A stretch of DNA of 64,000 bases from Thelocarpon superellum (GCA_026025795.1 JAPEUG010000006.1:1-64000), one strand, 5' to 3'; counted from the stretch's first letter, positions 25,556-59,626 are shown. Numbers and translations: made by a program. The notes: a model not told the origin generated them from the letters alone.

Positions 25556-26590
25556 TCATGGTGAGGTCGAATGGCATCCTCTTTCATGTCGCTTCATGTT
25601 ACTCCGGACGCTGAATGCTTTCCCACATCCTTGATGAGGGCATCGGAAGGGCTTCTCGCCCGTGTGACTGTGACTGTGGATGCGAAGACTGCTCGGTCGC
25701 GAGAAGGCCTTGTTGCACGTGGGACAGATGTAGCGGTCCTGGCACGGAGGGAAACTAGCCTGGGCCGATGGCGAGATGTAGTGGTGGTGTTGCCATGGAT
25801 TCGCACTCGACGTCGGCGACACCTGTAGCGATGCCGTCGACGGAGGAAACATCTGAGGCAGCGGTCGTTGATAGCTGTCATCGGAGCAGGTGCTAAGTGC
25901 CGTGTGGGCAGGATACGACCCCGTCGAGTGAGGGCTCGGGCTCGACTCCTGGGATAGACTCGGCGCCGGTACCAACCCCCTCTTCACTCCCGCCGAGCCG
26001 GACGGTTGCCGTTGCGGCGTCAAATCCAAGTGGTGGATGACATCTCCGCCGTGGTGCATTGGTACCGGGTGCGATGGGTACTGCACTTTGGTAGGCGGAG
26101 AGTGACGGGCTTCGAATCCCGAGTCAGGTCTCAGAGGGGGCGTAGGCGGGAGCATCCCTCGAGTCTGACTTCGCTCTTCTGTCTGCCCGAGCGCCGGACG
26201 GGAATTCGACGCCGCCAGCGCATGGAGGCCCTCGGCTTGTTGGTGTCCTACAAGACCACTCGCGTCAGCATTCGTCAATTGAATGGCCGGCTCGTAGGAC
26301 CTACCATGTTCTGGTCGAGGGTGGGAGACCCCATCGGCCGAATTGAAGAGACTCGAGATGGAGGGTAAGGAGCATTTTGCCTCTTCGACCGGAGGTGACG
26401 GGGGAGGCTGCGGGGTCTTGGAATGGTGGTAGGATCCCGGGATCTGGGCGTAGGGGTTTGCTACCAGTGCCGGCCCCGTGGCCGCGAATCGTTCTTGCGT
26501 TTGGGCGTAGGCCATCTCAACCGAGTGAGACGACGGATATGCGCGTTCGTGAGAGTGTCCGATACCGTGAACCAGATTGCTGACGTTCAT
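25556..26590 (-). CDS. mtfA: C2H2 zinc-finger transcription factor, MtfA ortholog
   Basis: CSLPSIS, LPPTPPLRP.SGF, WQHHHY and two C-terminal fingers (KAFSRPSSLRIHSHSHTGEKPF...SVRSNMKRHERGCH), as remembered for Aspergillus MtfA. Probable intron 26304-26248. Confidence 0.85.
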   Translation of the reverse strand: MNVSNLVHGIGHSHERAYPSSHSVEMAYAQTQERFAATGPALVANPYAQIPGSYHHSKTPQPPPSPPVEEAKCSLPSISSLFNSADGVSHPRPEHGRSYEPAIQLTNADASGLVGHQQAEGLHALAASNSRPALGQTEERSQTRGMLPPTPPLRPDSGFEARHSPPTKVQYPSHPVPMHHGGDVIHHLDLTPQRQPSGSAGVKRGLVPAPSLSQESSPSPHSTGSYPAHTALSTCSDDSYQRPLPQMFPPSTASLQVSPTSSANPWQHHHYISPSAQASFPPCQDRYICPTCNKAFSRPSSLRIHSHSHTGEKPFRCPHQGCGKAFSVRSNMKRHERGCHSTSP

Positions 26591-28649
26591 GGCTGCTCCA
26601 AGGTCTCAAGAAGGCCGACGTCGCAGTGTTTTCAAACTGGGAATGGGAAGCCAGGGAGATCGGTCGGCGGGATCGGTCAACGCCACTCTCAATGCTGTCG
26701 TCAGGAGATCGAAAAGAGGTCGTGAGCTTTCTCAATTGTTCTGAGGCGTTGTATATCAAGATGGTTGTTTGCGTGGTGACGGCCCACAATCGTCGAAAGA
26801 TGGACAAATGTAACAAGGACTCACAAGGACTCTGGAACGTTGGGGTTGGGGATTCAACGATCAGCGTCTCAATGGCGAGGGATAATCAGCAAACACAAAG
26901 GCTTTTGACACAGATTTTCGACACGGCTTTGACGCGCGTAGGTCTGGTAGCTTGGGGCGGGGCCGAAGAGTCTCGGCCGTGGACGAAGAATACTCGTCGG
27001 AAGAGGGGGCGAGACGGCAGCCAACTTGTTTCGGGGATCGACAGGATGAGCGGCGGGGAAGTCCTGGACCACTTTCTCCGCAGCTGGGATGGACAGATCA
27101 AGTAGGTTTGACGCTGTCCTCTGGGTAGGTCGTGGTGGAAGGTAGATAGGAGGAAAGAAGAAGAGGAAGGCACAGCTGCCTGCTGCGGAGACGCTGGGCT
27201 CGGTGGACTTGTGTGGCCCGCTCGATGATGAAAGGTGCCGCAGGCGACCACGAAAAGGAAGTATGTAAGAAGTGGAAGACACAACAGCGCGGACGGAAGC
27301 TCAGGGAATCATGGGTGACGGGCCGTGTTCATCGGCCCTGGTCCAAACTTGATACGGACTATCTTCTGCACGCGGGACTCCAAGGGAGCCACTGATCCAA
27401 TGATCCACTGATCCGCGGCATGTCACGTCGGGGGAAGACGGGTGTGGGGGGAGAGGAAGGGTACTTGGTAGGTGCGCCGCTCGGGAAGAAGGGAATAGAG
27501 TGCAGTGGGGTGACGGATGCGTGAGGATGGATAGTGCGAAGGCGAGGGCGACGGACGAGGTGCAGGCTGGCTAAACCCGTTGCCGGGACATGGGCACACA
27601 CGTCTTGGACCCTTCCGACGCGGCGTCTCCGTCAATCATCACGCACGTCCGGCGGAGGGAGGGGAGGTGCTAGCTAGACCTGGGAGCACGCGAACCGCAG
27701 GGCGCGAAGCGCCGTTGCATCGGTTCCCTTCCCCCCGGGGCACCCTAGAGCCCTAGGGCCCTAGGAACCCCAACACTGACTGGTGGGACATCTGCCGCGT
27801 GGATCATGTCATGAAATGGGAGCTGGGCTAGCGGTGGGACACGCCAACGGAGCATAGTGTGGTCTGGGCGCTGGTCGGCCCAAGCCGTGAAAGGGTTCGA
27901 TAGGTGATAGGCGACAGGGTGACGATCGGCTGGAGAAGGACAGGGCCGAAGTCGCATGGGGGTGGGTCGGGCGGAGGAGGAACGGGGGCAAAGGCAAGGG
28001 TGATGGTGGCGGTGGTGGTGGTGGTGGTGGGTGGTCACCGCAGGAGCGGAGATCCCTGGTCGGGCGTGTTGCAGCCGGGCCGAGCTAGAACGCCCGGCCA
28101 CCGGGGGGTGGGTAGTCGAAGGACGGGGGAGGAGGGCGGGGGGGCAGGCAACAAGAGGAGGTGGAGTGGCATGTCGGAACGGTGCGCACAGTGACGAGCA
28201 ACACGCATCGGTCGGTGGAGGGTGCCGCACGCATGGCCGTCAGTGGGCGTGGGCGCTCGCAATGACAGCCGGGGACCGGGGGGGTGGGGGGTGCGCCGGT
28301 CCAGTGTATTGGGTTGCCGGCTGGGAGATCCGCAAGTAGCCCCGAACCTTACGTGACGAACCTTGCTCTCGGATCGTGGAAAGGCAAAGGCGAGGGCCCA
28401 TGAGCGGGCGAATGACGAGCGAGGCGTGACGGGCGAGGAGGGGGGGTAGAGGGGCGGATGAGCCGGGCGGCGTCACGCACCGACGAGGCAGAATAGAGAA
28501 TCGGGTCATCGTGGCTGGCGGTCGCCGTGAGGGTGGAACGATGGCGTTGGTGGCGAGGGGCAACAATTCGCAGCACGGGACCGGCAGGGTCGCGGCCACG
28601 GTGGTCCCACCGGAAGGACCTGCCTCGTGCGCCAACACTGGGGACTTGG

Positions 28650-42463: not shown

Positions 42464-45400
42464 TCATCGACCACGCGAGGAAGACGACGAGGAAGACACC
42501 GAAGATTGCTTGCGGTGCTGCGGCCGTGTCGCGGCGGTCTCGTTCTTGGCTGGCGGACTTGTCTTAGCCTTGACCGGCGCTGGCGGCGATGGTAGTCTCG
42601 CGGCCCGAGAGGCAACCTGAGACCAAGTCGTCGATACTGGCACCACCTGAGCTTGTGCACCGGGTGTAATTACCTCCTCGGACGCTGCCGTCTCTGATTC
42701 GACCTCGCTCGTGTTCGTCGGACTGACTGCGCTCTTGGTTGGGCTAGGGTTGGAGCTACCGGTGCTGGCACTCCCCCGATTTCGCTTCGTCTTCGTCTTC
42801 GCCGCCACTATGAGATCAGGGAAGGCATCAACAGAAGCGAGTCCTGGCAACGGCATGTTGCCGACTGGACGTAAGCGGTGATTCTTCCATCGCGGCTCAG
42901 ACGTCCAGACATTCTGAGATCGTGGGGGCGAGTCATCGGATGTTGGCGACGCAAGCGATGAGGCAAGTGGCGACGGGATGGCAGACTTGCCGCTACCAGG
43001 CTCCATGGGTTGCTGCGGTGAAAGAGAAACCGAACAAGTATCACCTGTCTTGGCTTCAATCTGCACTATCGTCTCCTTAGTAGGGGATATCTCCTCGAGT
43101 GAGATCGTAGGAGGGGACGGTTCCTCTCGAGGAGAAGCATTGCTAACAGGCGATTCCTTGCCAACGGCTACCTGCGTCTCCAAGGAGACGTTCGTGATTG
43201 GCGACTTCGGCTCAGAAGATAGTGCCTCCTTGGGTGGCAGATTCTTCTCGGATGATAGCGCTTGGTCGACAGGCGGCGTCGCAATGGACGCCAAATTTGA
43301 TACCGTCTGAACGACTGGTGGCGTGGCGTTGGATACCACTTTCGTCTCGGCCGGGGTTGCTTCCTGTGAGGGTTGCGCTTTCGAAGTGGATGACTTCTTG
43401 GCCGGTGACCGCTTGCCGCCCGGAGACTTCTTTCCACCCGACGATTTCTTTTCGCTCGATGACTCCTTCGTCGTCGGTGACTTTTCACCCTTGGACGTCT
43501 TCTCCGGTGACGTGGACAAAGAGGACGTCTCCCGTGACGATGTAGGCGTTGGTGGTGATGGCTTCTGGACAAGAGACACCTCCAGACGCGAATCCTGCAT
43601 CGGCGAGTCCGTGGCGGGTGAAGTTTCTTTTGGCGGAGAGTTATTCTCATCCGGCGTGGTCGTCGTCTCTTCCTCGGACTCTGCCAATGCCGATGGATGC
43701 TCCTCCGGCGTTGATATCGCCAGGGGTGGTGGCTTCTCGGCCGCTGCAGACGTTGTCACAGCCGGCTCCACCTGCACCAGCTGCGTCGCGTGCCCTATTG
43801 ATCCATCTCTATCGGCCCCGGGAGCCTCGGACTCGGCAAGCTTGAGCTCGTGTCGCGTCGCGCCGTCGTATTTTCGCTCATGAGCGCTCGAATCGTTCAA
43901 TGCCCCATGGGCATTCGACGTCGGCATTAACTGACCGTTGCCCAAGTCAACAGCGCCGGAAGGCGCCCGACCGACACTCTTGCGAGCAATTTTTGGGGCC
44001 TTGCCCGCCCGGTACTTGCCCTTGGTCACCTCGGGCTCGGGCGTGGCGGCCTCCTCCCCTCGCACGGGACTCGACCGCCGGCTGGCTTTGCGGGACCCCT
44101 TACCCCGCTTCGGCTCAACCGAGGGCCCCTGGGGTGTTCCACGAGGAACGTAGGACGGGGTCACCCCTTGAAATGCCCCTTCGGGCACTTGTGGCTGAGC
44201 CTGACGTTTTGGTAGGGGGTCCGCCTTGACCCCTGGCCCGTTGTCTCGGACCACATTCACCGGGAGACCAGGTCCCACGCTGGCCTCCCCCAGAGGCAGG
44301 GCTTCCCCCGTGGAAGCGGTCTGGGCCGACGCACCCCGTGCCAACGTCGGCGGCAAATGGGCCCGGGCGATGTGGGGCTTGCCCGGCTCGTGAAAGACTC
44401 TCGCGGGGTGAGCCCCGCTCCGGGCATCTTGTGGGGTGTAAACCCCCGGCGAGTTCAGGCTCGGTGCGCGTCCATGCACCGGCCCATGGGATGTGACAGG
44501 TCCCACGGGCCCTATCGATGTATGCGGCGAGCAACCGCGAGGGTGACCGATGTGCGCGACGTTTGAGTCCACCAACGACAGCGGATGCACAAATGGGTCC
44601 GTCATTCCGTGAAGTCCCGCATAAGGGTGCGCGGCCCATTGAGAGGTTCGATCCGTGGTCGATTGCTTGTTGTACTGTGCGTCCACTGTGGGATCGTTCC
44701 GATGGCCCGTGACGAGGGCTTCTGGCATCGTCCGCAGAGCCGTCGCTGGCACACTGGTAACCAAGACGGCCTGTTGGACCGAATCCTCGTTGCCGTGGCC
44801 GGCGGCGTGAGTGGGCTGGGCAATGTTTGCAGTGGAGCAGCTTGGGCCGGACGGCTTCATGGCCGGTGTTCGGGCAGATATCTCATTCCGATGTTCCAGA
44901 TCTTGACCCGCACCCGCGTCGACGACTTTCATTGGGCACTCGATGCGTCCTCTCATGGACGAGGGCGCGAAGGCACGGGATCGAGGTGGGGTAGTTCCAG
45001 GTAGCCGGGGCAGCGGAACACGCGACTTGGGGTTCTGTCGCTGCACACTAAGCGACGAGCCATTTAGGATGCTATGATTCATCTCGAGTCTCGCAGTCTC
45101 TGCGTCCACCGGATTGGTGTAACTAGCACGGGTTAGCTCGAGCTCACTTGAAAATGAGGTTGTGGCGTACTGGATGAAGGCAAAGCCCCGGTGGACCTGA
45201 CCATCGTGGGGCCCTTCGGGAGCGACTCGTGGAAGATGAACTTTTTCGATGTGGCCGAACGGAGCGAAAGCCTCGAGGATGTCATGTTCCGTCACTTCTT
45301 GGGCGACGCCTCCGACCCACAAGGCCGTTGCCGAATCATCAACCATCAACGCCGGGTGATACGGGGGCTGGGCTTGATCTCCTGAGGGCACCCGCGTCAT

Positions 45401-46771
45401 ATATCCAGAGTCACGACCCGTCCGGCCGGGCTCTGCGACGGCGTCCTTGTTATGCGGCGGGCGGGCCATGACGGGTCGGGCGGGCAGCATGCGGTGCGCT
45501 CCCTGGCCCGCATGGCGGACGTCACTCATCTCCCGCATACGTGGGGCTTGGTTCATCGGTGCTGAGCCACGTGCCACTGGGTAGCGGTGTATCTTGTGCG
45601 ATGGTACCTCGACAGGCTGGGTGCGCAAGGATGCCGCGGGGCGATGGTAATCCATTGATGGCGATGGATGGCCAGGCTGAGGACCATAATTGATGTGTGC
45701 GATCGACGAAGGCGTCCGCGGGTCTCCCTGGTGGATGGAGCCAACGTGAGCACGAGGGGGTCCATGCGGTCCGACTCCAACTGGTGGACCACGGAAAGGG
45801 GGCGTGGGCAGACGCGCAGCAGCGGGGACTGCTCGGGCAGGATGCACCGCTGGGCCAAAGTATGCATGCGCGTCGCCTTGGAAGGGTCCACGTTGTTGAG
45901 CTTGCTCAGTAACCGGGTAGTGGTTGTCATACGCCACGGCCACAGGCTGGTAGGCAGGGGGTCCTGCGGGCGGTGCTGCCGGACCTTGGGACCATTGAAC
46001 ATGCTGCACTTGCGGAGCCGGAGCTGCCATGGGTAGACAGGGATAGAGCCGTGCGGGAGGAGCGTAGTATCCGGCGAAAGGGGCATTGTGAACGTGCTCG
46101 GACATCAGTGAAGGCGGCCCACGAGCACAAAATGACGGGTCGACAAAGCCTGCGAACATGGCGTCATAAGGAGGCAGATGTCCTGGAGCGAAGCCCATTG
46201 GTGGGAGCTCGTTGGGAATCTGCGGCGGATAGAAGGGCGGAGGGCGAGGAGAGACTGACCGGGTCACCGGGGGCATCGCGAAGGCAATAGAAGGGGGCAT
46301 ACCAGGACGGTGCTCCTTGATGAACTTTAGCTCTGTCAGCACTTCGGCCAAAAAGTCGCTGCCCCACATCTCCAGCTCTTCCTTACGGAACAGCACGTTC
46401 GGTGTACATTCAGCTGTCACTTCTTTGAAGCGTCGCGGGTTCCCCTCGCTCCATTGGTACGCAAAGCCAACGAGGTGCTCTTTGTGCGCGGCGTTCTCGG
46501 CGATGAGCTCCCACAAAACGCTCCACAGGAAGCCAGCACCATGTAAGTGAAGGTCTTGTTTGTCAAAGTAGGCGTTCATGTCGAGTGGAAGCTTCACTTG
46601 GCGGCACTTTTCAGGCCAGACACGGCGAAGGTAAGAGACCCAGTACGCCTTATCCTCGCTGGGGTCCGAGCGGAGGATGATGGGGTCGGCATAGTCGGGT
46701 TCTGCCACATCCTGAGATGGGTCTCGCATCGAGAAGAGGGGCCGATGAATGTAAGCGTCGGTGTTGGCCAT
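42464..46771 (-). CDS. Large low-complexity protein with a single RRM
   Basis: 1474-aa ORF; RNP2 LWVGGV and RNP1 RGFAFI; probable 48-nt intron 45170-45123; likely start MANTD at 46771. Confidence 0.8.
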   Translation of the reverse strand: MANTDAYIHRPLFSMRDPSQDVAEPDYADPIILRSDPSEDKAYWVSYLRRVWPEKCRQVKLPLDMNAYFDKQDLHLHGAGFLWSVLWELIAENAAHKEHLVGFAYQWSEGNPRRFKEVTAECTPNVLFRKEELEMWGSDFLAEVLTELKFIKEHRPGMPPSIAFAMPPVTRSVSPRPPPFYPPQIPNELPPMGFAPGHLPPYDAMFAGFVDPSFCARGPPSLMSEHVHNAPFAGYYAPPARLYPCLPMAAPAPQVQHVQWSQGPAAPPAGPPAYQPVAVAYDNHYPVTEQAQQRGPFQGDAHAYFGPAVHPARAVPAAARLPTPPFRGPPVGVGPHGPPRAHVGSIHQGDPRTPSSIAHINYGPQPGHPSPSMDYHRPAASLRTQPVEVPSHKIHRYPVARGSAPMNQAPRMREMSDVRHAGQGAHRMLPARPVMARPPHNKDAVAEPGRTGRDSGYMTRVPSGDQAQPPYHPALMVDDSATALWVGGVAQEVTEHDILEAFAPFGHIEKVHLPRVAPEGPHDGQVHRGFAFIQYATTSFSSELELTRASYTNPVDAETARLEMNHSILNGSSLSVQRQNPKSRVPLPRLPGTTPPRSRAFAPSSMRGRIECPMKVVDAGAGQDLEHRNEISARTPAMKPSGPSCSTANIAQPTHAAGHGNEDSVQQAVLVTSVPATALRTMPEALVTGHRNDPTVDAQYNKQSTTDRTSQWAAHPYAGLHGMTDPFVHPLSLVDSNVAHIGHPRGCSPHTSIGPVGPVTSHGPVHGRAPSLNSPGVYTPQDARSGAHPARVFHEPGKPHIARAHLPPTLARGASAQTASTGEALPLGEASVGPGLPVNVVRDNGPGVKADPLPKRQAQPQVPEGAFQGVTPSYVPRGTPQGPSVEPKRGKGSRKASRRSSPVRGEEAATPEPEVTKGKYRAGKAPKIARKSVGRAPSGAVDLGNGQLMPTSNAHGALNDSSAHERKYDGATRHELKLAESEAPGADRDGSIGHATQLVQVEPAVTTSAAAEKPPPLAISTPEEHPSALAESEEETTTTPDENNSPPKETSPATDSPMQDSRLEVSLVQKPSPPTPTSSRETSSLSTSPEKTSKGEKSPTTKESSSEKKSSGGKKSPGGKRSPAKKSSTSKAQPSQEATPAETKVVSNATPPVVQTVSNLASIATPPVDQALSSEKNLPPKEALSSEPKSPITNVSLETQVAVGKESPVSNASPREEPSPPTISLEEISPTKETIVQIEAKTGDTCSVSLSPQQPMEPGSGKSAIPSPLASSLASPTSDDSPPRSQNVWTSEPRWKNHRLRPVGNMPLPGLASVDAFPDLIVAAKTKTKRNRGSASTGSSNPSPTKSAVSPTNTSEVESETAASEEVITPGAQAQVVPVSTTWSQVASRAARLPSPPAPVKAKTSPPAKNETAATRPQHRKQSSVSSSSSSSRGR

Positions 46772-47588
46772 GGTAGGCAAAGGTGCGGGTGAGAGGTTGT
46801 AGAGCGTGGGGAGGCGCGGAGCGAGGGGGAGAAGGCCAGAAGAATGTCTGGCTCGGAGACGGGGGTAGAAGGCGTGACGGTGCACCACGGCGTTCTCACG
46901 ACGAGGTGAACGCGGAGGATGGATTGCGACGATGATGTTACAAGATGATGGGGTGGACCTCGGTGGGATGCCGAAAGTTGTGCGGATTCGAAAGGGTGCT
47001 TTTCAGTCGTCTTTGGCAACAAGCAGAACGGTGATAAGGAGAAGAAGCAGGACGGTCGGATGGACGACTTTATCTCGGGTGGGACTGTGTGGTGTTATCA
47101 CCGGGTTATGTTGGATCACACCATCCTGTTATCGTGTTTACGATGGTGAATACAACCAGTTGGCCGTGGCAGGAGAGAGAAAGGAGCAGGAGCGACTGAG
47201 TAAGGCAAATGGGGTGACCGAGGAAGACACGGTCAACGGCAAGACACAGCACGAGCATACCCCACACACATTTACCTCAGTAACACGGAGGCCACAATTC
47301 ACATGCGTTGGCCTCCTGCGGCCATGGGGTGCAGGCTGCACGCTGCAGGTGAAATCCTTAAGAGCGATTTTCATGGATGCTGGGTGCTCCACGAGAGATC
47401 TCGGCCGTGTCTGTGGGTTCTGCAAAGGTACTGGGACGCGCTAGCTAGCACTCCATATGGCTGTCATTTCACAGTAGCAATGCGGGTTGTCCTTCGACTT
47501 GCGCGACGATGGTTCACGGTCATCTATTCTTTGGATCAGGGGAAATAGTAAGTAAGCACTCCGGACTGTACGCCGACAACGATGGATC

Positions 47589-51068: not shown

Positions 51069-51644
51069 GTCAATGTTTCTTCATCGTCTTCTGTTATCTG
51101 CTTTCCGCCCGCCGATTTCCGTTTTCCGTTTGCTCGTCTCCTTTCGACCTTCTCATTTGACCCTCTCCTTTGACCTTCCGCATTGTTCCTCGGTTGGGCC
51201 GATCAAGTCCCGTGACCTGGGTCTTGCAGCTCTACGGTCTTTCATCCTGCTCGAGGAACCTTGCTCCTTTTTCCTCATTAGTCATTGACCATCGCTGCAT
51301 GTTTCGGCCGCCGGACTAACTTACATTCTTGGCGACTCGGCAAATTATGTTACTTGCACACCTCGCTCTCTCTAACTCGTCCTACGAGTACTCGCTTGTC
51401 TCGCAATCACTGGTACACCCTGACTACACGGAACACCTCGCTAACTTGTTCATTTGTTTACTTCAGTCCGGCTTGGTGCCCTAGCCAGGCATCGAGTTCG
51501 TCCGACCGACAAGACCCGTCCCCGAAGCGCAAACGGGACGAAGGCACCGAGGCCTTGGTACACCACAGCGAAGCGGGCGCAGCCCAAAAGCGCCAGCACC
51601 GCCGGCAAGACCCCTCGGTGCTGCACCGGCGATTTCTTTTCGGG

Positions 51645-52748
51645 ATGCAGATCCGGTGCGTGCCGGACGACGAGCTGGCCATCGGTCCCGATGGCAAGAA
51701 GCTTCCGTTCGCGATCGTCACCAAGGACGACCGACGGAAGCATGTCGAAGAAACGGGGCCGTTTGGCAAGTCGCGTCGGGGCCGGACGCGGTCGAAAACC
51801 CCGGCCATGACGAAGAAGGACGACCCCAGCTTGGCCGCCTTCGATGAGGCGTTTCGATACGACCTGAGCAAGCAGGAGGCCGAGAAGCAGCGCCTGCTGC
51901 AGCCACATGCCCATGATCCGCACAGCGGATCGTTGTCGTCTCCCTCCTCCCTCACCACGGCACCGACCGCCACCTCCCTCACCGTGGTCGACTCCTTGGC
52001 TATCTCCTCCCTACCGGCGTCCGTCACCACCCGGCCCCAAGAGCCGACCGAAGTCCTGCTTCGTGGCTTCCGTCCGGGCCAGCAATATGCGGCCATCGAT
52101 CTATACGAACGGATCGGCCAAGGACAGATTTGTGAAGACTACTCCCGCGACCCACCAACAGAGCAACGACGGTTCGGTTCCAGCCGTACCTATCCTCCAC
52201 GACCTTTGACCGCGGCCGAGAAGGGTAAAGTGAATGCCTACGCTGGTGGTGACTCGTGGATCAAAGTGACGTTTGAGTCTGCCGAAGCCGCTGATCGCGC
52301 TGTGTACGCGTCGCCGCAAGACATCCATGGCGCCATGGTCTATGCCGAGCTTTACCGCGGCCCTCCCGAGACGGCGCCCTCCCTTCCTCACACGTCGAGC
52401 TCCTTCTCCACAGCCCTCGCACCTTCAACCCTCTCTTCCTCTCGACGCCCGGGTCTGGACCACGCGGTGGCCAGCGGGATCGCACCTCAGCTCCCTGCGG
52501 AAGGCTACTGCACCAAGGTCCCAACCGCCCGCAAGGCCGTCCTTCTTCCCGCGGAGCAAGCGCTGCTGCCGCAACAGAGCTTTAGCCAGCGATACATCCT
52601 GCCCTACGTGGGTAATTGGGGCCAGATCATCGGCGACGAGACGCCTCGCTTGGACGATGGCACCTTTGACTACTACGGCGCAAATCTGTGGTGGAAGACG
52701 TGGTATTGGATGGATATCATCTTTCGTCTGCACCTCATCGACGACTAG
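51645..52748 (+). CDS. Nucleoporin Nup53/Nup35-like protein (RRM-like domain)
   Basis: VPDDEL.IG.DG..LPFA, EPTEVLLRGF, ICEDY.RDPP, GGDSWIKVTFESAEAADRA, KAVLLPAEQALLPQ match the remembered Pezizomycotina Nup53-like family. Confidence 0.75.
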   Translation: MQIRCVPDDELAIGPDGKKLPFAIVTKDDRRKHVEETGPFGKSRRGRTRSKTPAMTKKDDPSLAAFDEAFRYDLSKQEAEKQRLLQPHAHDPHSGSLSSPSSLTTAPTATSLTVVDSLAISSLPASVTTRPQEPTEVLLRGFRPGQQYAAIDLYERIGQGQICEDYSRDPPTEQRRFGSSRTYPPRPLTAAEKGKVNAYAGGDSWIKVTFESAEAADRAVYASPQDIHGAMVYAELYRGPPETAPSLPHTSSSFSTALAPSTLSSSRRPGLDHAVASGIAPQLPAEGYCTKVPTARKAVLLPAEQALLPQQSFSQRYILPYVGNWGQIIGDETPRLDDGTFDYYGANLWWKTWYWMDIIFRLHLIDD

Positions 52749-54806: not shown

Positions 54807-54880
54807 TGAGCACGTTCTTTTCCTCCGCACGTAAGCCTTGAAAGGGGGTTGATGTCTGTCTGTCCGTGTGTCTGTATAAA
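54807..54880 (+). promoter_or_regulatory. Promoter of the BIM1-like gene: CuRE-like CGTGCTCA (minus strand, 54807-54814) and TATAAA (54875-54880)
   Basis: One mismatch to the TGTGCTCA Mac1 site; TATA ~130 bp upstream of the ATG. Confidence 0.4.
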
Positions 54881-55011: not shown

Positions 55012-55807
55012 ATGGTGAGATTCCTCGTCCTCGCGGCGGCCTTGCCGCTGGCCGCGGCTCACTTTAAGCTGGACTACCCGCCCGCGCGCGGCTTTGACGA
55101 GGACAATCTCATCTATTTCCCCTGTGGCAAGCAGGATTCCGTGTCGTCGAACCGCACTGAATGGGGCATCAAAGGCGGGCCTATCGACCTGACCATGGGC
55201 CACGACCAGGCCGCCGTGCAAGTGCTACTCGGTCTGGGCAACAACCCGGGTGTCAACTTCAACATCACGCTCGAGCCGACCTTCCTCGAGCAGGGATTAG
55301 GAAGCTTCTGCATGCCGGATGTCGTCGTGCCGGGTGACCTTGGCATCTCCGATGGCATGAATGCCACCATTCAGGTGGTGACCAATGGCGACCCGAACGG
55401 CGGCCTCTACAATGTAAGACTCGCCACGTCCCCGTGTTCCCACAGCTCGTCACCACTTCTGTTTCCCTGCGTATGTACGAGCGGGCATGCTGACGGACGC
55501 CGCGTTGCGGTAGTGTGCGGACATCACCTTCCGAACTGCCCCCGCCCCCTCTCCTTCATGCACGAACAACACCGGCATCGCTACCACCTCCTACACCGGT
55601 CGGTCGAAGAACGCCAATCAAACCAACACCGACTCGAACCAGGCTGACTCGGCCATAACCGGGAGCCCGCCGTCGGGCACCGCATCTAGTACGGCTACCG
55701 CGGCCTCCCCTGGCAAGACTGGGGCCGCATCCACGATGAGACTGAAGGAGGATCTGCTCGCTCTGGCCATGCTTGTCGTATTGACTTCCTGCGCTTTGCT
55801 ATGGTAG
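55012..55807 (+). CDS. GPI-anchored copper acquisition factor, BIM1/X325 (LPMO-like) family
   Basis: Exons 55012-55413 and 55514-55807. A 16-aa signal peptide is followed by His1 (HFKLDYPPARGFDED..PCG); second His in TMGHD; NATIQVVTNGD..GGLYN|CADITF; Ser/Thr stalk and hydrophobic C-terminus. Confidence 0.85.
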
Positions 55808-56029
55808 AACATGTAGTGTCTGTAGCGTCGCGTGAAGGACCAAAAGAACTACAATCGTGGAGTCGTCATCTGCTTGTCCTCTATCGAGTTCGCCGGGGGA
55901 ATAAGGAAAGTAGAATCGTATCAGGAGGGAGTGCAGGATACTGGGCTCTGTAGCGATCGTCGCTGGAAGTCTGATCAAAGGCCACGGCCATGCCCACTGA
56001 CCACGTCCTCGCTCGGTGGCCCGTCACGC

Positions 56030-56671
56030 TCAGTGGCCTGGCGACATGCCATATCGCCCCATCGCCAGCTCCCCGAGAAAGGTTCCGCCGAGGACCGACA
56101 GAAAATACCCGACATTGTACGTCATGACTGCCAACATGCTGCGGTCGCACTCGCGTCAGCCCTGGGTGGACAGGCGCGCGTCGAGGTCAACCGGACGGGT
56201 CACGACTCACAGGAGGTATCCCACACCAACCATGACGGTGACCAGCAGCGCGCGTGGCCCGTCGACGCTAATCCTCCACGGCATGGGCTCGCGGAGGTGT
56301 CGCTCAACCACGCGCACCTCCTCCTCCACGCCTTGCGCCGTAACCAAAATGGCATTTTTCGCATCGCTGTCGGCGCTGATGCGCATGGCCTCGGATGGCT
56401 TGCCAGCGACAGAAACGTAGCGTCGACTCAGGTGCCGATTATAACAGCATTGTTCGTACTTTTCGCGGACGGCGAAGAGCGCTCGGAAGAAGACGGTCAT
56501 GAGGATGAGGAAGATGCACGTTCCAGCGTAGCCGGCCGTGGTCGTGGGTGTCCACTGGATGGAGAACAGCGGGGTCGCCGTGGAGGCGAAGAAGGTTGAA
56601 GACATGCCCTCACCCGCGCCCGTGTCCATCGAAGAGTCCATGTTCATACCACTTGAGGCATCCATATTCAT
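56030..56671 (-). CDS. Ctr-family copper transporter
   Basis: Exons 56671-56211 and 56138-56030. N-terminal Mets motifs MNMD..GMNMD..M; LFS..W.P....YAGTCIFL; TM2 MLAVM (MxxxM); TM3 GTFLG (GxxxG). Confidence 0.95.
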
Positions 56672-57073
56672 GGTGGTAGAGGCGATGACCAAGAGACGGT
56701 AGAGCGGATGATGAAAGGGTCAACGTAAGGAATGGTCTACTCTGCGACGATCACGACGAGAGGGAGAAGAACTATCAGAGCAGCGACAAGTGTTGACGTG
56801 ATATGCAGCAAAGCCGTCGCACACGAAGCAGGCGCAATGTGACTATACGCAGGCGCGATGTGATTGTTCAGACAGGAAAGAGCCGATTGAAGGGATTTCC
56901 TTCCGTCCATGTTGCCCCACTGCATTTCCGGGGTCAGATCCACCCGGCCTCAAATCCGATGGCGAAAGTTTCCAGGATAACCAGCTCACCCTTACGCGGA
57001 CCGGATGCGGGTCCGGAGAGGGTAGGTCATGATGCCGCAGGCCGGTCCGGGCCCCATGACTCGGTGAGGAGGG

Positions 57074-57093
57074 TTTGCGCAGATATGAGCACA
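57074..57093. promoter_or_regulatory. Inverted pair of Mac1-type copper-responsive elements in the Ctr/Fre divergent promoter
   Basis: TTTGCGCA (57074-57081) fits yeast TTTGC(T/G)C(A/G); then GATA; then TGAGCACA (57086-57093), the reverse complement of TGTGCTCA. Confidence 0.65.
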
Positions 57094-57520
57094 TTTCTGC
57101 CGCCATCCCGCGCTAAAGGGTCCTTCTTATCCCATGTATACCCCCCCCCCGGCCAGGGAACATCGGGCAAGTCAGGCGCACTGGCGCAGGGACGGCATGG
57201 CGGTAGCAGCCCTAGATCGGGTCCTGTGTCGCACATGTCGCCTGGTGAGCCCGGCGGTAAGTGTGCGTGGTGCGAGAAGTTCGATGTCGAGTCCGCCGAA
57301 GGTGCTGGCGGGGTGTGCCCGGAATGACCTGGTGCCACCGGGACACTTCCGGTGAAGTTGCGTGGCCCGGTTGAATATGTAACCGTTGAGTCGGACCCTG
57401 ATCAACTCTTTTTTCTGTCGACCTCAACGACGAGACTGAAATGATCCTTTCCTCCCTCTCTCTCCCGTCACATCGGATCATCGATTGTGCTGCGTGGTTC
57501 TTCCTCGCCGCACCGACAAG

Positions 57521-59626
57521 ATGGACATGAGTATGGACGGCATGGACATGGCTCCATCCAGCTCCATGTTTATGGGAGCAGGCATGCCCAAACTATTCTA
57601 CCTCCAACAAATGTATTGGGTGATCATTGGTATCACCGTGGGCGTCGCCGCCGTCGTGAATCTGCTCAATGAACTTCTCGCGCACCAGCGCTTACGGGCA
57701 GCGCTTCAACACCACGCCACACCCGCGAAGCCTGCGTCGGTCGTCGCTCGAACGGGTGCGACCATCACCGCCATCGCACGAGAGATCAGCTACGCGTCGC
57801 CGTCACCTCTCCGGATGGGAGGGTTTACACTCCGCCTGCCATCGCTGGGCAAGATCCTCGTGGTGCTAGCCAACTTGGTCGTCTTGATCGTGCTCTGTCT
57901 GTACGGCTTCAACATCACCGACCCGTGGCAATACGAAGACATTGGATACCGCACGGGCCTCATCACCGTCTGTCAGATGCCCTTGCTATTTCTGTTGGCC
58001 GGCAAGAACAACATTATCGGCCTCCTCACCGGCACCAGCTACGAACGACTCAACTGGCTCCATCGGTGGGCGGCACGATGCCTGCTTTTCACCGCTACCC
58101 TTCACATGGGCTACTGGATCACGGACTGGGCACGCTTCGACTACGTCCTTACCAAGATGCAGACCGACTCCATCACGCAGAAGGGGCTGGGGGCATGGGG
58201 GGTGTTGGTCTGGATCGTGTTCAGCTCCATGAGCCCTATTCGAGGCTGGTGCTACGAGTTCTTCCTTCTACAGCACCTTGTCTCATTTGCCGCGTTTGTC
58301 GGTATGGTCTACATCCACACGCCCACCGAAGTGCACGTGTGGATCTGGATCCCTGTCGCCCTCTTGGCCATCGATCGGCTCATCCGGGTGACTGCGGCCC
58401 TCTACATCAACCTGTCTATTTTCCATCCTCGATCGGATCGGGACGACATGAAGGCCGGCCTTTGGGCCTGTCGCGCCGAGCTGGTACCGCTCTCGCACGA
58501 TGCCACGCGCATCATCCTCCGTAATCCGCCTATCAGTTGGCGGCCGGGCCAACATGTATTCCTCTCATGTCATTCCATCATGCCGCTCCAGAGCCACCCT
58601 TTTACCATTGCCTCCATTCCTCAAGATGGCCGGATGGAATTCCTGGTGCGCGCCCAAAAGGGTGGGACCCGGCGCTTGTTCCGAGCCGCCACGAAAGCGC
58701 TTCGTCTCCCTACTTCCGAGGCGGATCTGATCCTTCGAGACGAACGTGCGGTGGCGATCGAAGGCCCGTACGGACGGCTGCGACCGCTGCGACAATTTGA
58801 CAGCGTCGTCTTCTTCGCCGGTAGCACGGGTGCCAGCTTCACGGTGCCACTACTGCGCGATCTGGTACGACAGTGGCAGAGCCCAACCAAGCCGACTAGA
58901 AGATGTTTGATTCTCCCTAGCCAGGTCCCTGGGGCGGCGACAAGACACATCCGCTTCGTCTGGGTGGTTCAAGGCTTGGGGCAGGTGGCCTGGTTCACGG
59001 AGCAGCTCAACGCCGCAGTTCAGGATGTGCAGAATCTCCGTTCGTCGGGATCGAACGTCGAACTGGAGATGAGCATCTATATCACCTGCGACGGTAGCCT
59101 CACCGGGTCCTTGGAGAGAACGCCGAAGCAGTCCTCGTCGTCCGCTCCATCTATCGCGGAGAAGATTGAGGCCAAAGCAGATGAGAAAACGGGTGAAGAT
59201 AAGAAGAACGACACCAACGCCATTCGCGAACGCAAGGTGGCTGCCGAAAGGGTCTCTTGCGGTCCCAATGGTACCTGCTGTTGCACCCAGACCGCGCGAG
59301 ACGAATTGAGCAGCAGCGCGTCAGCACCGAGTCGATGCAATTGCCACTCCAATGCGCCTGCTCTCGCGCCCTTGAGCTCATCCACTCGGGGCCCATTGAC
59401 GCTTCACTCCTCCATCGCGCTCCTTTCTGGACGGCCTCGGCCACGAAATCTCATCCGGACTTCATTGGAACAAGCCCTTGGCGAGAGTGCCGTGGTAGTC
59501 TGCGGGCCAGGAGGCTTGATCTGTGACGTGCGCCGCAGTGTCGTCGCACTGAGTGACGAGAGAGCGGTGCACAAGGGAACGGGGGCTCAGGGTATCTGGC
59601 TGCATTGCGAGGGATTCGGCTTTTGA
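57521..59626 (+). CDS. Ferric/cupric reductase (Fre family)
   Basis: GKNN, heme ligands in LNWLHRW...LHMG and QH...YIH, FAD motif HPFTI, EGPYG, AGSTG, VCGP, HCEGFGF. Intronless ORF. Confidence 0.95.
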   Translation: MDMSMDGMDMAPSSSMFMGAGMPKLFYLQQMYWVIIGITVGVAAVVNLLNELLAHQRLRAALQHHATPAKPASVVARTGATITAIAREISYASPSPLRMGGFTLRLPSLGKILVVLANLVVLIVLCLYGFNITDPWQYEDIGYRTGLITVCQMPLLFLLAGKNNIIGLLTGTSYERLNWLHRWAARCLLFTATLHMGYWITDWARFDYVLTKMQTDSITQKGLGAWGVLVWIVFSSMSPIRGWCYEFFLLQHLVSFAAFVGMVYIHTPTEVHVWIWIPVALLAIDRLIRVTAALYINLSIFHPRSDRDDMKAGLWACRAELVPLSHDATRIILRNPPISWRPGQHVFLSCHSIMPLQSHPFTIASIPQDGRMEFLVRAQKGGTRRLFRAATKALRLPTSEADLILRDERAVAIEGPYGRLRPLRQFDSVVFFAGSTGASFTVPLLRDLVRQWQSPTKPTRRCLILPSQVPGAATRHIRFVWVVQGLGQVAWFTEQLNAAVQDVQNLRSSGSNVELEMSIYITCDGSLTGSLERTPKQSSSSAPSIAEKIEAKADEKTGEDKKNDTNAIRERKVAAERVSCGPNGTCCCTQTARDELSSSASAPSRCNCHSNAPALAPLSSSTRGPLTLHSSIALLSGRPRPRNLIRTSLEQALGESAVVVCGPGGLICDVRRSVVALSDERAVHKGTGAQGIWLHCEGFGF

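Follow-up and report, generated by a model that had tools for sequence, protein, structure and literature searches.

X325, Ctr and Fre genes of Thelocarpon superellum: a conserved linked trio that probably serves copper acquisition

Introduction

In Aspergillus fumigatus, three adjacent genes encode a putative glycosylphosphatidylinositol (GPI)-anchored protein (Afu6g02800), a copper transporter (Afu6g02810, now ctrA2) and a metalloreductase (Afu6g02820) (Sugui et al. 2008, PMC2481287, cited in part; reports marked in this way are represented here by portions of their text). The three were induced together, with log2 values of 11, 8 and 3, respectively, in hyphae with normal versus chronic granulomatous disease (CGD) neutrophils, and were deleted as one block (PMC2481287, in part). 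Here, we describe a locus with the same three kinds of gene in Thelocarpon superellum, a species placed in Thelocarpales whose position within Leotiomyceta is uncertain. The locus lies at 55012–59626 of a 64,000-nt stretch from a metagenome-assembled genome (hereafter the window, meaning the whole stretch) and carries genes for an X325/BIM1-like GPI-type protein, a Ctr copper transporter and a Fre/NADPH oxidase (NOX)-type metalloreductase. We propose that the trio is, with good probability, a co-regulated module for copper capture, reduction and import, and one copy of an old module conserved in ascomycetes. We favour this explanation because the linkage of the three genes is conserved and because their promoters share a word.

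Divergent pairs of a Ctr and a Fre gene are also on record, among them that of A. nidulans, whose transporter gene AnctrA we take to be AN3209. AnctrA and AnfreC (AN3208) share a promoter with a Mac1 site, and 110 of 127 species show synteny of the pair (Antsotegi-Uskola et al. 2020, PMC7705104, in part), in agreement with the statement, in a preliminary description of the window made from its sequence, that head-to-head ctr/fre pairs occur in filamentous fungi. In Fusarium oxysporum, Mac1 binds sites with a TGCTCA core in divergent ctr/fre promoters, a motif obtained by chromatin immunoprecipitation sequencing (PMC11563359, in part). As for the GPI-type protein, the Pseudogymnoascus destructans genes BLP2 and BLP3 are raised 3.8-fold and 26.3-fold when copper is withheld (PMC12113139, in part).

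Gene models

The three genes of the window are laid out as follows, with TM standing for transmembrane helix and ORF for open reading frame:

55012–55413, plus strand: X325/BIM1-like exon 1, with predicted signal peptide (residues 1–16), His17 (predicted mature His1), His64 and Asp127; PF20238
55414–55513, plus strand: X325 intron, read from the sequence; 100 nt, GTAAGA...TAG, phase 0, GT..AG
55514–55807, plus strand: X325 exon 2, with the domain end (CADITF, Cys135, Cys150), a Ser/Thr/Ala-rich linker, a hydrophobic GPI-type tail and a TAG stop
55808–56029, no strand: X325–Ctr spacer, 222 bp between convergent stop codons
56030–56138, minus strand: Ctr exon 2, with the end of TM2 bearing MLAVM (MxxxM), TM3 bearing GTFLG (GxxxG) and the stop codon
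56139–56210, minus strand: Ctr intron, 72 nt, GTGAGT...CAG
56211–56671, minus strand: Ctr exon 1, with the Met-rich ectodomain, TM1, the cytosolic loop and the start of TM2; PF04145
56672–57520, no strand: Ctr–Fre divergent promoter, 849 bp between start codons
57521–59626, plus strand: Fre/NOX-type metalloreductase, a single ORF of 701 aa; PF01794, PF08022 and PF08030

The preliminary description had already read 55012–59626 as a three-gene cluster of X325, Ctr and Fre, and Pfam, a match to a solved structure and a fold search bear it out: PF20238, PF04145 and PF01794/PF08022/PF08030 were matched in the three genes in turn. Its estimates of a convergent X325–Ctr gap of about 220 bp and a divergent promoter of about 850 bp agree with the measured 222 bp and 849 bp. 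The spliced X325 product is 231 aa long and identical to the NCBI-annotated T. superellum protein P0032; read-through gene models, in which the intron is left unspliced, depart from spliced homologues at the same position.

Linkage across lineages

The linkage was surveyed by scanning metagenome contigs with the X325 alignment as the sole seed. This gave 77 loci, of which 76 were re-scored as X325 and grouped into 51 lineages at ≥95% nucleotide identity; the linkage counts concern those 22 lineages in which the sequence upstream of X325 is 2.6 kb or longer. Ctr stands beside X325 on the same strand in 20 of these 22, and Fre, on the opposite strand and divergent from that Ctr, in 19, or in 14 of the 16 lineages with at least 5.5 kb upstream. 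Five further lineages with short flanks also have Ctr, in tandem in L020, L027, L063 and L075 and convergent in L021. The majority form is X325 in tandem downstream of Ctr (20 lineages), and the inverted, convergent X325 of the window is a minority form that recurs only in L021.

As a control, we took a gene outside the trio (ORF 51282–52748), which is kept in 4 of the 15 lineages with enough flank. The difference in retention between Ctr and this outer gene is significant (Fisher p 9e-5), to be read with the proviso that the outer gene has lower conservation and that tblastn may overlook it in distant lineages. As the scan was seeded with X325 only and 20 of 22 independent lineages show it again, the X325–Ctr–Fre adjacency is more than chance. 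The control gene itself is a 488-codon open frame on the plus strand that adjoins the trio and has no Pfam family; its relatives lie on the X325 side in four lineage groups (L004, L008, L029 and L069).

The nearest named X325 proteins of the trio lineages come from Thermoascus (98%), Aureobasidium (89%), an unnamed Dothideomycete (88–93%), Hyaloscypha (94%), Cadophora (92%), Cudoniella (79%), Heterodermia (62%) and others. We take Thermoascus, Aureobasidium, Hyaloscypha, Cadophora and Heterodermia to stand for Eurotiomycetes, Dothideomycetes, Leotiomycetes and lichen-forming classes, and on these presumed assignments of the nearest named relatives the trio spans several classes of Pezizomycotina.

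The same counts bear on the possibility that the adjacency is meaningless here, the three genes being chance neighbours or having been joined by an artefact of assembly. The window does come from a metagenome-assembled genome, its X325 is oriented differently from that of most relatives, and a second study contributes two runs in which the stretch is represented by small pieces only, none of which bridges the genes. Run X1, which contains 97% of the stretch, nevertheless provides one 2048-nt contig covering 55615–57658, that is, the end of X325, the entire Ctr and the start of Fre; this run is possibly the source of the assembly itself, and the bridging contig is therefore not independent support. 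The same gene content is present in 20 of 22 lineages, and the convergent form found in the window recurs in L021. Together, the bridging contig and the recurrence among lineages largely refute an accident of position or assembly, to which we assign next to no probability.

Promoters

The Ctr–Fre promoter set comprises 20 regions (19 lineages and the window) and 18.5 kb. Among 2066 six-letter words, TGCTCA ranks first in this set, with 34 occurrences against 10.8 expected and a presence in 19 of the 20 regions, and its sites have the common flank AAAC(G/T)TGCTCA. The extended word AACNTGCTCA occurs 15 times in the 18.5 kb of Ctr–Fre promoters (14 of 20 regions), 14 times in 24.6 kb upstream of X325 (12 of 20 regions) and twice in 213 kb of flanks, counts that are to be read knowing that this background includes coding DNA and that the motif flank was derived from the same promoter set before being tested on the X325-upstream set. 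In the two lineages where X325 is unlinked, L040 and L042, AACNTGCTCA is still found, at -267 and -334 of X325. Each promoter of the window has one Mac1-type site:

54807–54816, minus strand: Mac1-type word AACGTGCTCA, some 200 bp ahead of the X325 start codon; the sole AACNTGCTCA in the 64-kb window
57086–57095, minus strand: Mac1-type word AATGTGCTCA, roughly midway along the divergent Ctr–Fre promoter

As one core site in 849 bp is what chance would give, the case for regulation rests on the comparison between lineages, and it is this comparison that makes the words candidate Mac1 sites and the trio a putative target of Mac1 regulation.

Other words were seen in these regions. Words such as GTCATGAC and ATGTTGGC are enriched upstream of X325; we rejected a regulatory role for them, as they derive from the Ctr exon 2 coding sequence contained in the region. 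A second word, GCTTGGCA, is enriched in Ctr–Fre intergenic regions (8 observed against 0.56 expected, in 6 lineages), and CTTGGCA is likewise enriched upstream of X325. A poly-C run at 57140, within the divergent promoter of the window, is 4 C longer in the run X1 contig.

Linkage and promoter word together permit an assessment of the proposal that X325 is a passenger, kept by descent beside a working Ctr–Fre pair and acting on the cell wall, in morphogenesis or remodelling, and not in copper import. Cryptococcus cbi1 mutants show cell-wall changes under copper starvation (PMC9258870, in part), mushroom X325 genes are developmentally regulated and have been suggested to have a morphogenetic role (PMC10282164), and one review regards what the X325 site does biochemically as unknown (PMC10952591). 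Consistent with a passenger, too, X325 has its own promoter and its orientation flips, being convergent in the window and L021 and tandem in 20 lineages. Against this, X325 stays with Ctr in 20 of 22 lineages while the outer neighbour stays in 4 of 15, and the X325 promoters have the same extended word as the Ctr–Fre promoters even where the genes are unlinked. X325 is, moreover, co-induced with ctrA2 in A. fumigatus (PMC2481287, in part) and induced by copper withholding in P. destructans (PMC12113139, in part), and a wall role under copper control would still place it in the copper regulon. We thus consider a passenger X325 unlikely, and prefer its membership in a co-regulated copper module.

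The X325 protein

The first gene of the trio is assigned to X325 with confidence by sequence and by fold. PF20238 is matched with an E-value of 3.4e-29 (102.5 bits against a cut-off of 27), and the sequence matches that of the crystallised Laetisaria arvalis protein LaX325 (6IBH) at E 1.2e-15, in an alignment that begins at residue 1 of the mature chain. The AlphaFold model has a mean predicted local distance difference test score (pLDDT) of 79, rising above 90 over the domain. When this model was searched against the PDB, the top four matches were all LaX325 (TM-scores of 0.76–0.79, E 1.6e-11 to 3.0e-11), followed by lytic polysaccharide monooxygenases (LPMOs) at E 1.9e-3 or weaker. LaX325, at 34–35% identity, is the closest solved relative of the window protein.

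The residues expected of a copper site are in place. His17 pairs with the first residue of mature LaX325 as crystallised; it is preceded by ...LAAA, with small residues at -1 and -3, and because the signal-like N-terminus ends in this way, cleavage would probably put His17 at the start of the mature protein. Across 44 aligned homologues, all named and of full length, H17, H64, C38, C100 and C150 are invariant, and D127 (in NGDPNGG), C135 and D137 are at least 90% conserved. The copper site of Bim1 has been described by Brander et al. (PMC7529816, in part) as a histidine brace with an Asp on a Gly-rich loop. D127 matches this Asp and is our candidate third ligand; D137, the Asp of CADITF, had also been entertained and was dropped, as D127 on the Gly-rich loop fits the published description better. 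With these residues, the window protein would be expected to bind Cu(II).

At the C-terminus, a Ser/Thr/Ala-rich linker leads into GAAS, after which come a short polar spacer and a hydrophobic tail of 17 residues, which spans residues 211–225 and beyond. This is the layout of a GPI signal, and homologues carry a GPI-anchored annotation, both of which suggest that the protein may be attached to the cell surface by a GPI anchor. One homologue, the Cadophora protein P0089, is annotated as 'expression library immunization antigen 1'. We take this to be the name of a Coccidioides vaccine antigen, which may then belong to the X325 family.

The transporter and the reductase

The Ctr product is 189 aa long and matches PF04145 at E 8.6e-22. 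Six Met lie within the first 45 aa, in the ectodomain; the MLAVM motif (MxxxM) is at 155–159 in TM2 and the GTFLG motif (GxxxG) at 172–176 in TM3. By hydropathy, two TMs stand above threshold and the third, which bears GxxxG, is weaker.

The reductase matches PF01794 (Ferric_reduct, E 9.7e-28), PF08022 (FAD_binding_8, E 6.6e-17) and PF08030 (NAD_binding_6, E 1.9e-13), and has HPFT at 359, GPYG at 415 and CGP at 661. We aligned it with 13 of the best-scoring near-full-length representatives, and the haem-binding pairs His181/195 and His252/266 are present in all 14 sequences. It has two further features, along with an extra N-terminal TM ahead of the six-TM bis-heme core:

57521–57610, plus strand: Fre Met-rich N-terminal tail, 8 Met in 30 aa, MDMSMDGMDM..., predicted to face outward
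59255–59347, plus strand: Fre Cys cluster CGPxGxCCC...CxC, residues 579–609, in a low-complexity insert of the NADPH-binding domain

The tail precedes the extra TM helix, and its MxM-type Met runs resemble the Ctr ectodomain; the divergent Ctr and Fre genes both often begin with MDMS. The loop after the first helix is rich in Arg and Lys (7, versus 2 acidic residues). The tail is therefore predicted to face outward, both from the positive-inside rule and from the known topology of NOX, whose core starts in the cytosol. Where the Fre N-terminus is read in the first exon, 13 of 14 lineages have a Met-rich tail (the exception being L032); the other five have one in their short first exon, giving 18 of 19 in total (Fre genes of L004–L071). 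In a wider library survey, the alignment reaches the N-terminus in 57 of 150 representatives, and the 30 residues preceding the helix contain 4 or more Met in 16 of the 25 with at least 42% identity, versus 6 of the 32 that are more distant. The Cys cluster, which is kept in 13 of the 14 aligned sequences, could be a cytosolic Cu(I) site. No paper on either the Met tail or the Cys cluster was found in our literature search.

From its link with Ctr, the promoter word and the Met tail, this enzyme would be predicted to reduce Cu(II) at the cell surface. The trio might, on the other hand, serve reductive iron uptake or defence against oxidative stress. Fe(III) as well as Cu(II) is a substrate of Fre enzymes (PMC5812535, in part), and Afu6g02820 is higher in the wild type than in an aceA deletant at high copper (PMC8425704). 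Sugui et al. proposed an oxidative-stress role for the induced iron and copper assimilation genes, including the trio, on the ground that normal neutrophils gave stronger induction than CGD neutrophils (PMC2481287, in part). Such a role sits poorly with the middle gene being a Ctr copper channel, with the Mac1-type word in the promoters and with a reductase tail of Cu(I)-type methionines, and neither a ferroxidase nor an iron permease is among the 17 other window ORFs that were scanned. The A. fumigatus triple deletant, for its part, grows normally on iron-limited media and has no added susceptibility to hydrogen peroxide (PMC2481287, in part). We regard iron uptake or stress defence as very unlikely to be what the trio is for, and continue with copper acquisition.

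If the Met tail and the Cys cluster are functional, they would explain how reduced copper avoids escape between reductase and channel. We suggest, tentatively and at somewhat less than even odds, that the Ctr-linked Fre is a copper-specialised relay enzyme and not a general ferric reductase. Its Met tail could catch the Cu(I) that it produces and hand it to Ctr, and its Cys cluster could act as a sensor or recipient of Cu(I) and restrain the enzyme's activity; with X325 and the shared AACNTGCTCA, this would make an ancient three-protein copper relay, common to the trio lineages whose nearest named X325 relatives are given above.

Proposed mechanism and its weighing

Given the gene identities, key residues, fold, conserved linkage and shared cis-element observed above, how might the module work? 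Under copper shortage, a Mac1-type activator would bind the AA(C/T)NTGCTCA words both in the shared Ctr–Fre promoter and in the promoter that X325 has to itself. X325, on its GPI anchor, would capture Cu(II) through its histidine brace (His17, His64) and Asp127. Fre would carry electrons from cytosolic NADPH through FAD and the two haems to the outer face, where Cu(II) would become Cu(I). The Met-rich tails of Fre and Ctr may then take up the Cu(I) and deliver it to the pore of the Ctr trimer, where MxxxM would be the filter. Both the hand-over of copper and the topology of the tail are predicted steps.

Several points count against a co-regulated copper module, in addition to the coding DNA in the motif background and the derivation of the motif flank given above. 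Two of the 22 lineages, L040 and L042, keep X325 without Ctr or Fre nearby. In the window, the Ctr–Fre promoter site AATGTGCTCA is the AAT and not the AAC variant, each promoter has a single site, and the bare core occurs at chance level (45 in 64 kb). The orthology of Ctr to ctrA2 is based on position and not on a tree. In A. fumigatus, the triple deletant showed neither raised hydrogen peroxide susceptibility nor a growth defect on iron-limited media (PMC2481287, in part), and locus tags place no CTR gene beside the Bim1-like gene of P. destructans that is induced most strongly (PMC12113139, in part).

The function of X325 outside Cryptococcus is unsettled, and the linkage and promoter word give strong comparative support for a role in copper acquisition in filamentous ascomycetes. 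These include pathogens in which copper supply affects virulence.

Elsewhere in the window, no metal- or copper-related family was found among the 17 other ORFs scanned. A C2H2 zinc-finger ORF (25556–26605, minus strand) and a 1512-codon ORF with one RRM domain (42464–47002, minus strand) are apparently unrelated to the trio.

Comparison with known systems

The window X325 belongs to a fold with a solved member, since LaX325 (6IBH, 6IBI, 6IBJ) has the same fold and its N-terminal His, second His and Gly-rich-loop Asp align with those of the window protein. LaX325 is a basidiomycete protein whose biological role is reported as unsettled. By locus tags, the genes for Cbi1/Bim1 and Ctr1 of Cryptococcus are presumably not neighbours. 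Cbi1/Bim1 of Cryptococcus neoformans belongs to the same Pfam family as the window X325, and is a GPI-anchored histidine-brace copper protein that is induced by copper shortage and works with Ctr1 (PMC9258870 and PMC7529816, both in part).

The Ctr–Fre half of the locus has its counterpart in F. oxysporum, where ctr3/fre9 and ctr1b/fre12 are divergent pairs, as in the window, and are each served by one Mac1-bound promoter (PMC11563359, in part). In the portions cited, the reports on A. nidulans (PMC7705104) and F. oxysporum (PMC11563359) describe Ctr–Fre pairs and name no X325 or GPI third gene. F. oxysporum fre10 shares a Mac1-bound promoter with the uncharacterised FOXG_02393 (PMC11563359, in part), and the P. 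destructans gene BLP2 (VC83_03095) adjoins, by locus tag, the induced reductase gene VC83_03096, a proximity on which that report makes no comment in the portion cited (PMC12113139, in part). VC83_03095/03096 and fre10/FOXG_02393 may be two-gene variants of the module, in which X325 and Fre occur without Ctr.

The whole trio is matched by that of A. fumigatus, which has the same three kinds of gene, likewise ordered around a central Ctr (PMC2481287, in part). The likeness is one of gene content and order; in the window, X325 converges on Ctr. In the portions of the 2008 report cited here, the X325/Bim1 copper nature of the GPI protein was not recognised, nor do they give a phenotype under copper limitation. 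We identify that protein as an X325 because PF20238 is present in the A. lentulus and A. udagawae proteins that take their name from AFUA_6G02800 (they are 46–47% identical to the window X325) and because AFUA_6G02800 is the best Swiss-Prot match of P. destructans VC83_07867, Bim1-like protein 3 (PMC5810475 and PMC12113139, both in part).

The preliminary description had proposed a linked capture-reduce-import module and knew of no earlier account of the triple. Its functional reading gains from the linkage among lineages, the shared Mac1-type word and the induction seen in P. destructans (PMC12113139, in part); its suggestion of novelty falls, the A. fumigatus genes Afu6g02800–02820 having been reported as adjacent, co-induced and co-deleted in 2008 (PMC2481287, in part). 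Our literature search, which did not take in two primary Bim1/X325 papers of 2020, returned no paper that names X325–Ctr–Fre as a conserved unit. Thus, the trio of T. superellum is not itself new and is a further member of the kind seen in A. fumigatus, to which its breadth among lineages, the shared extended promoter word, the Met tail of the reductase and the reductase Cys cluster may be new additions.

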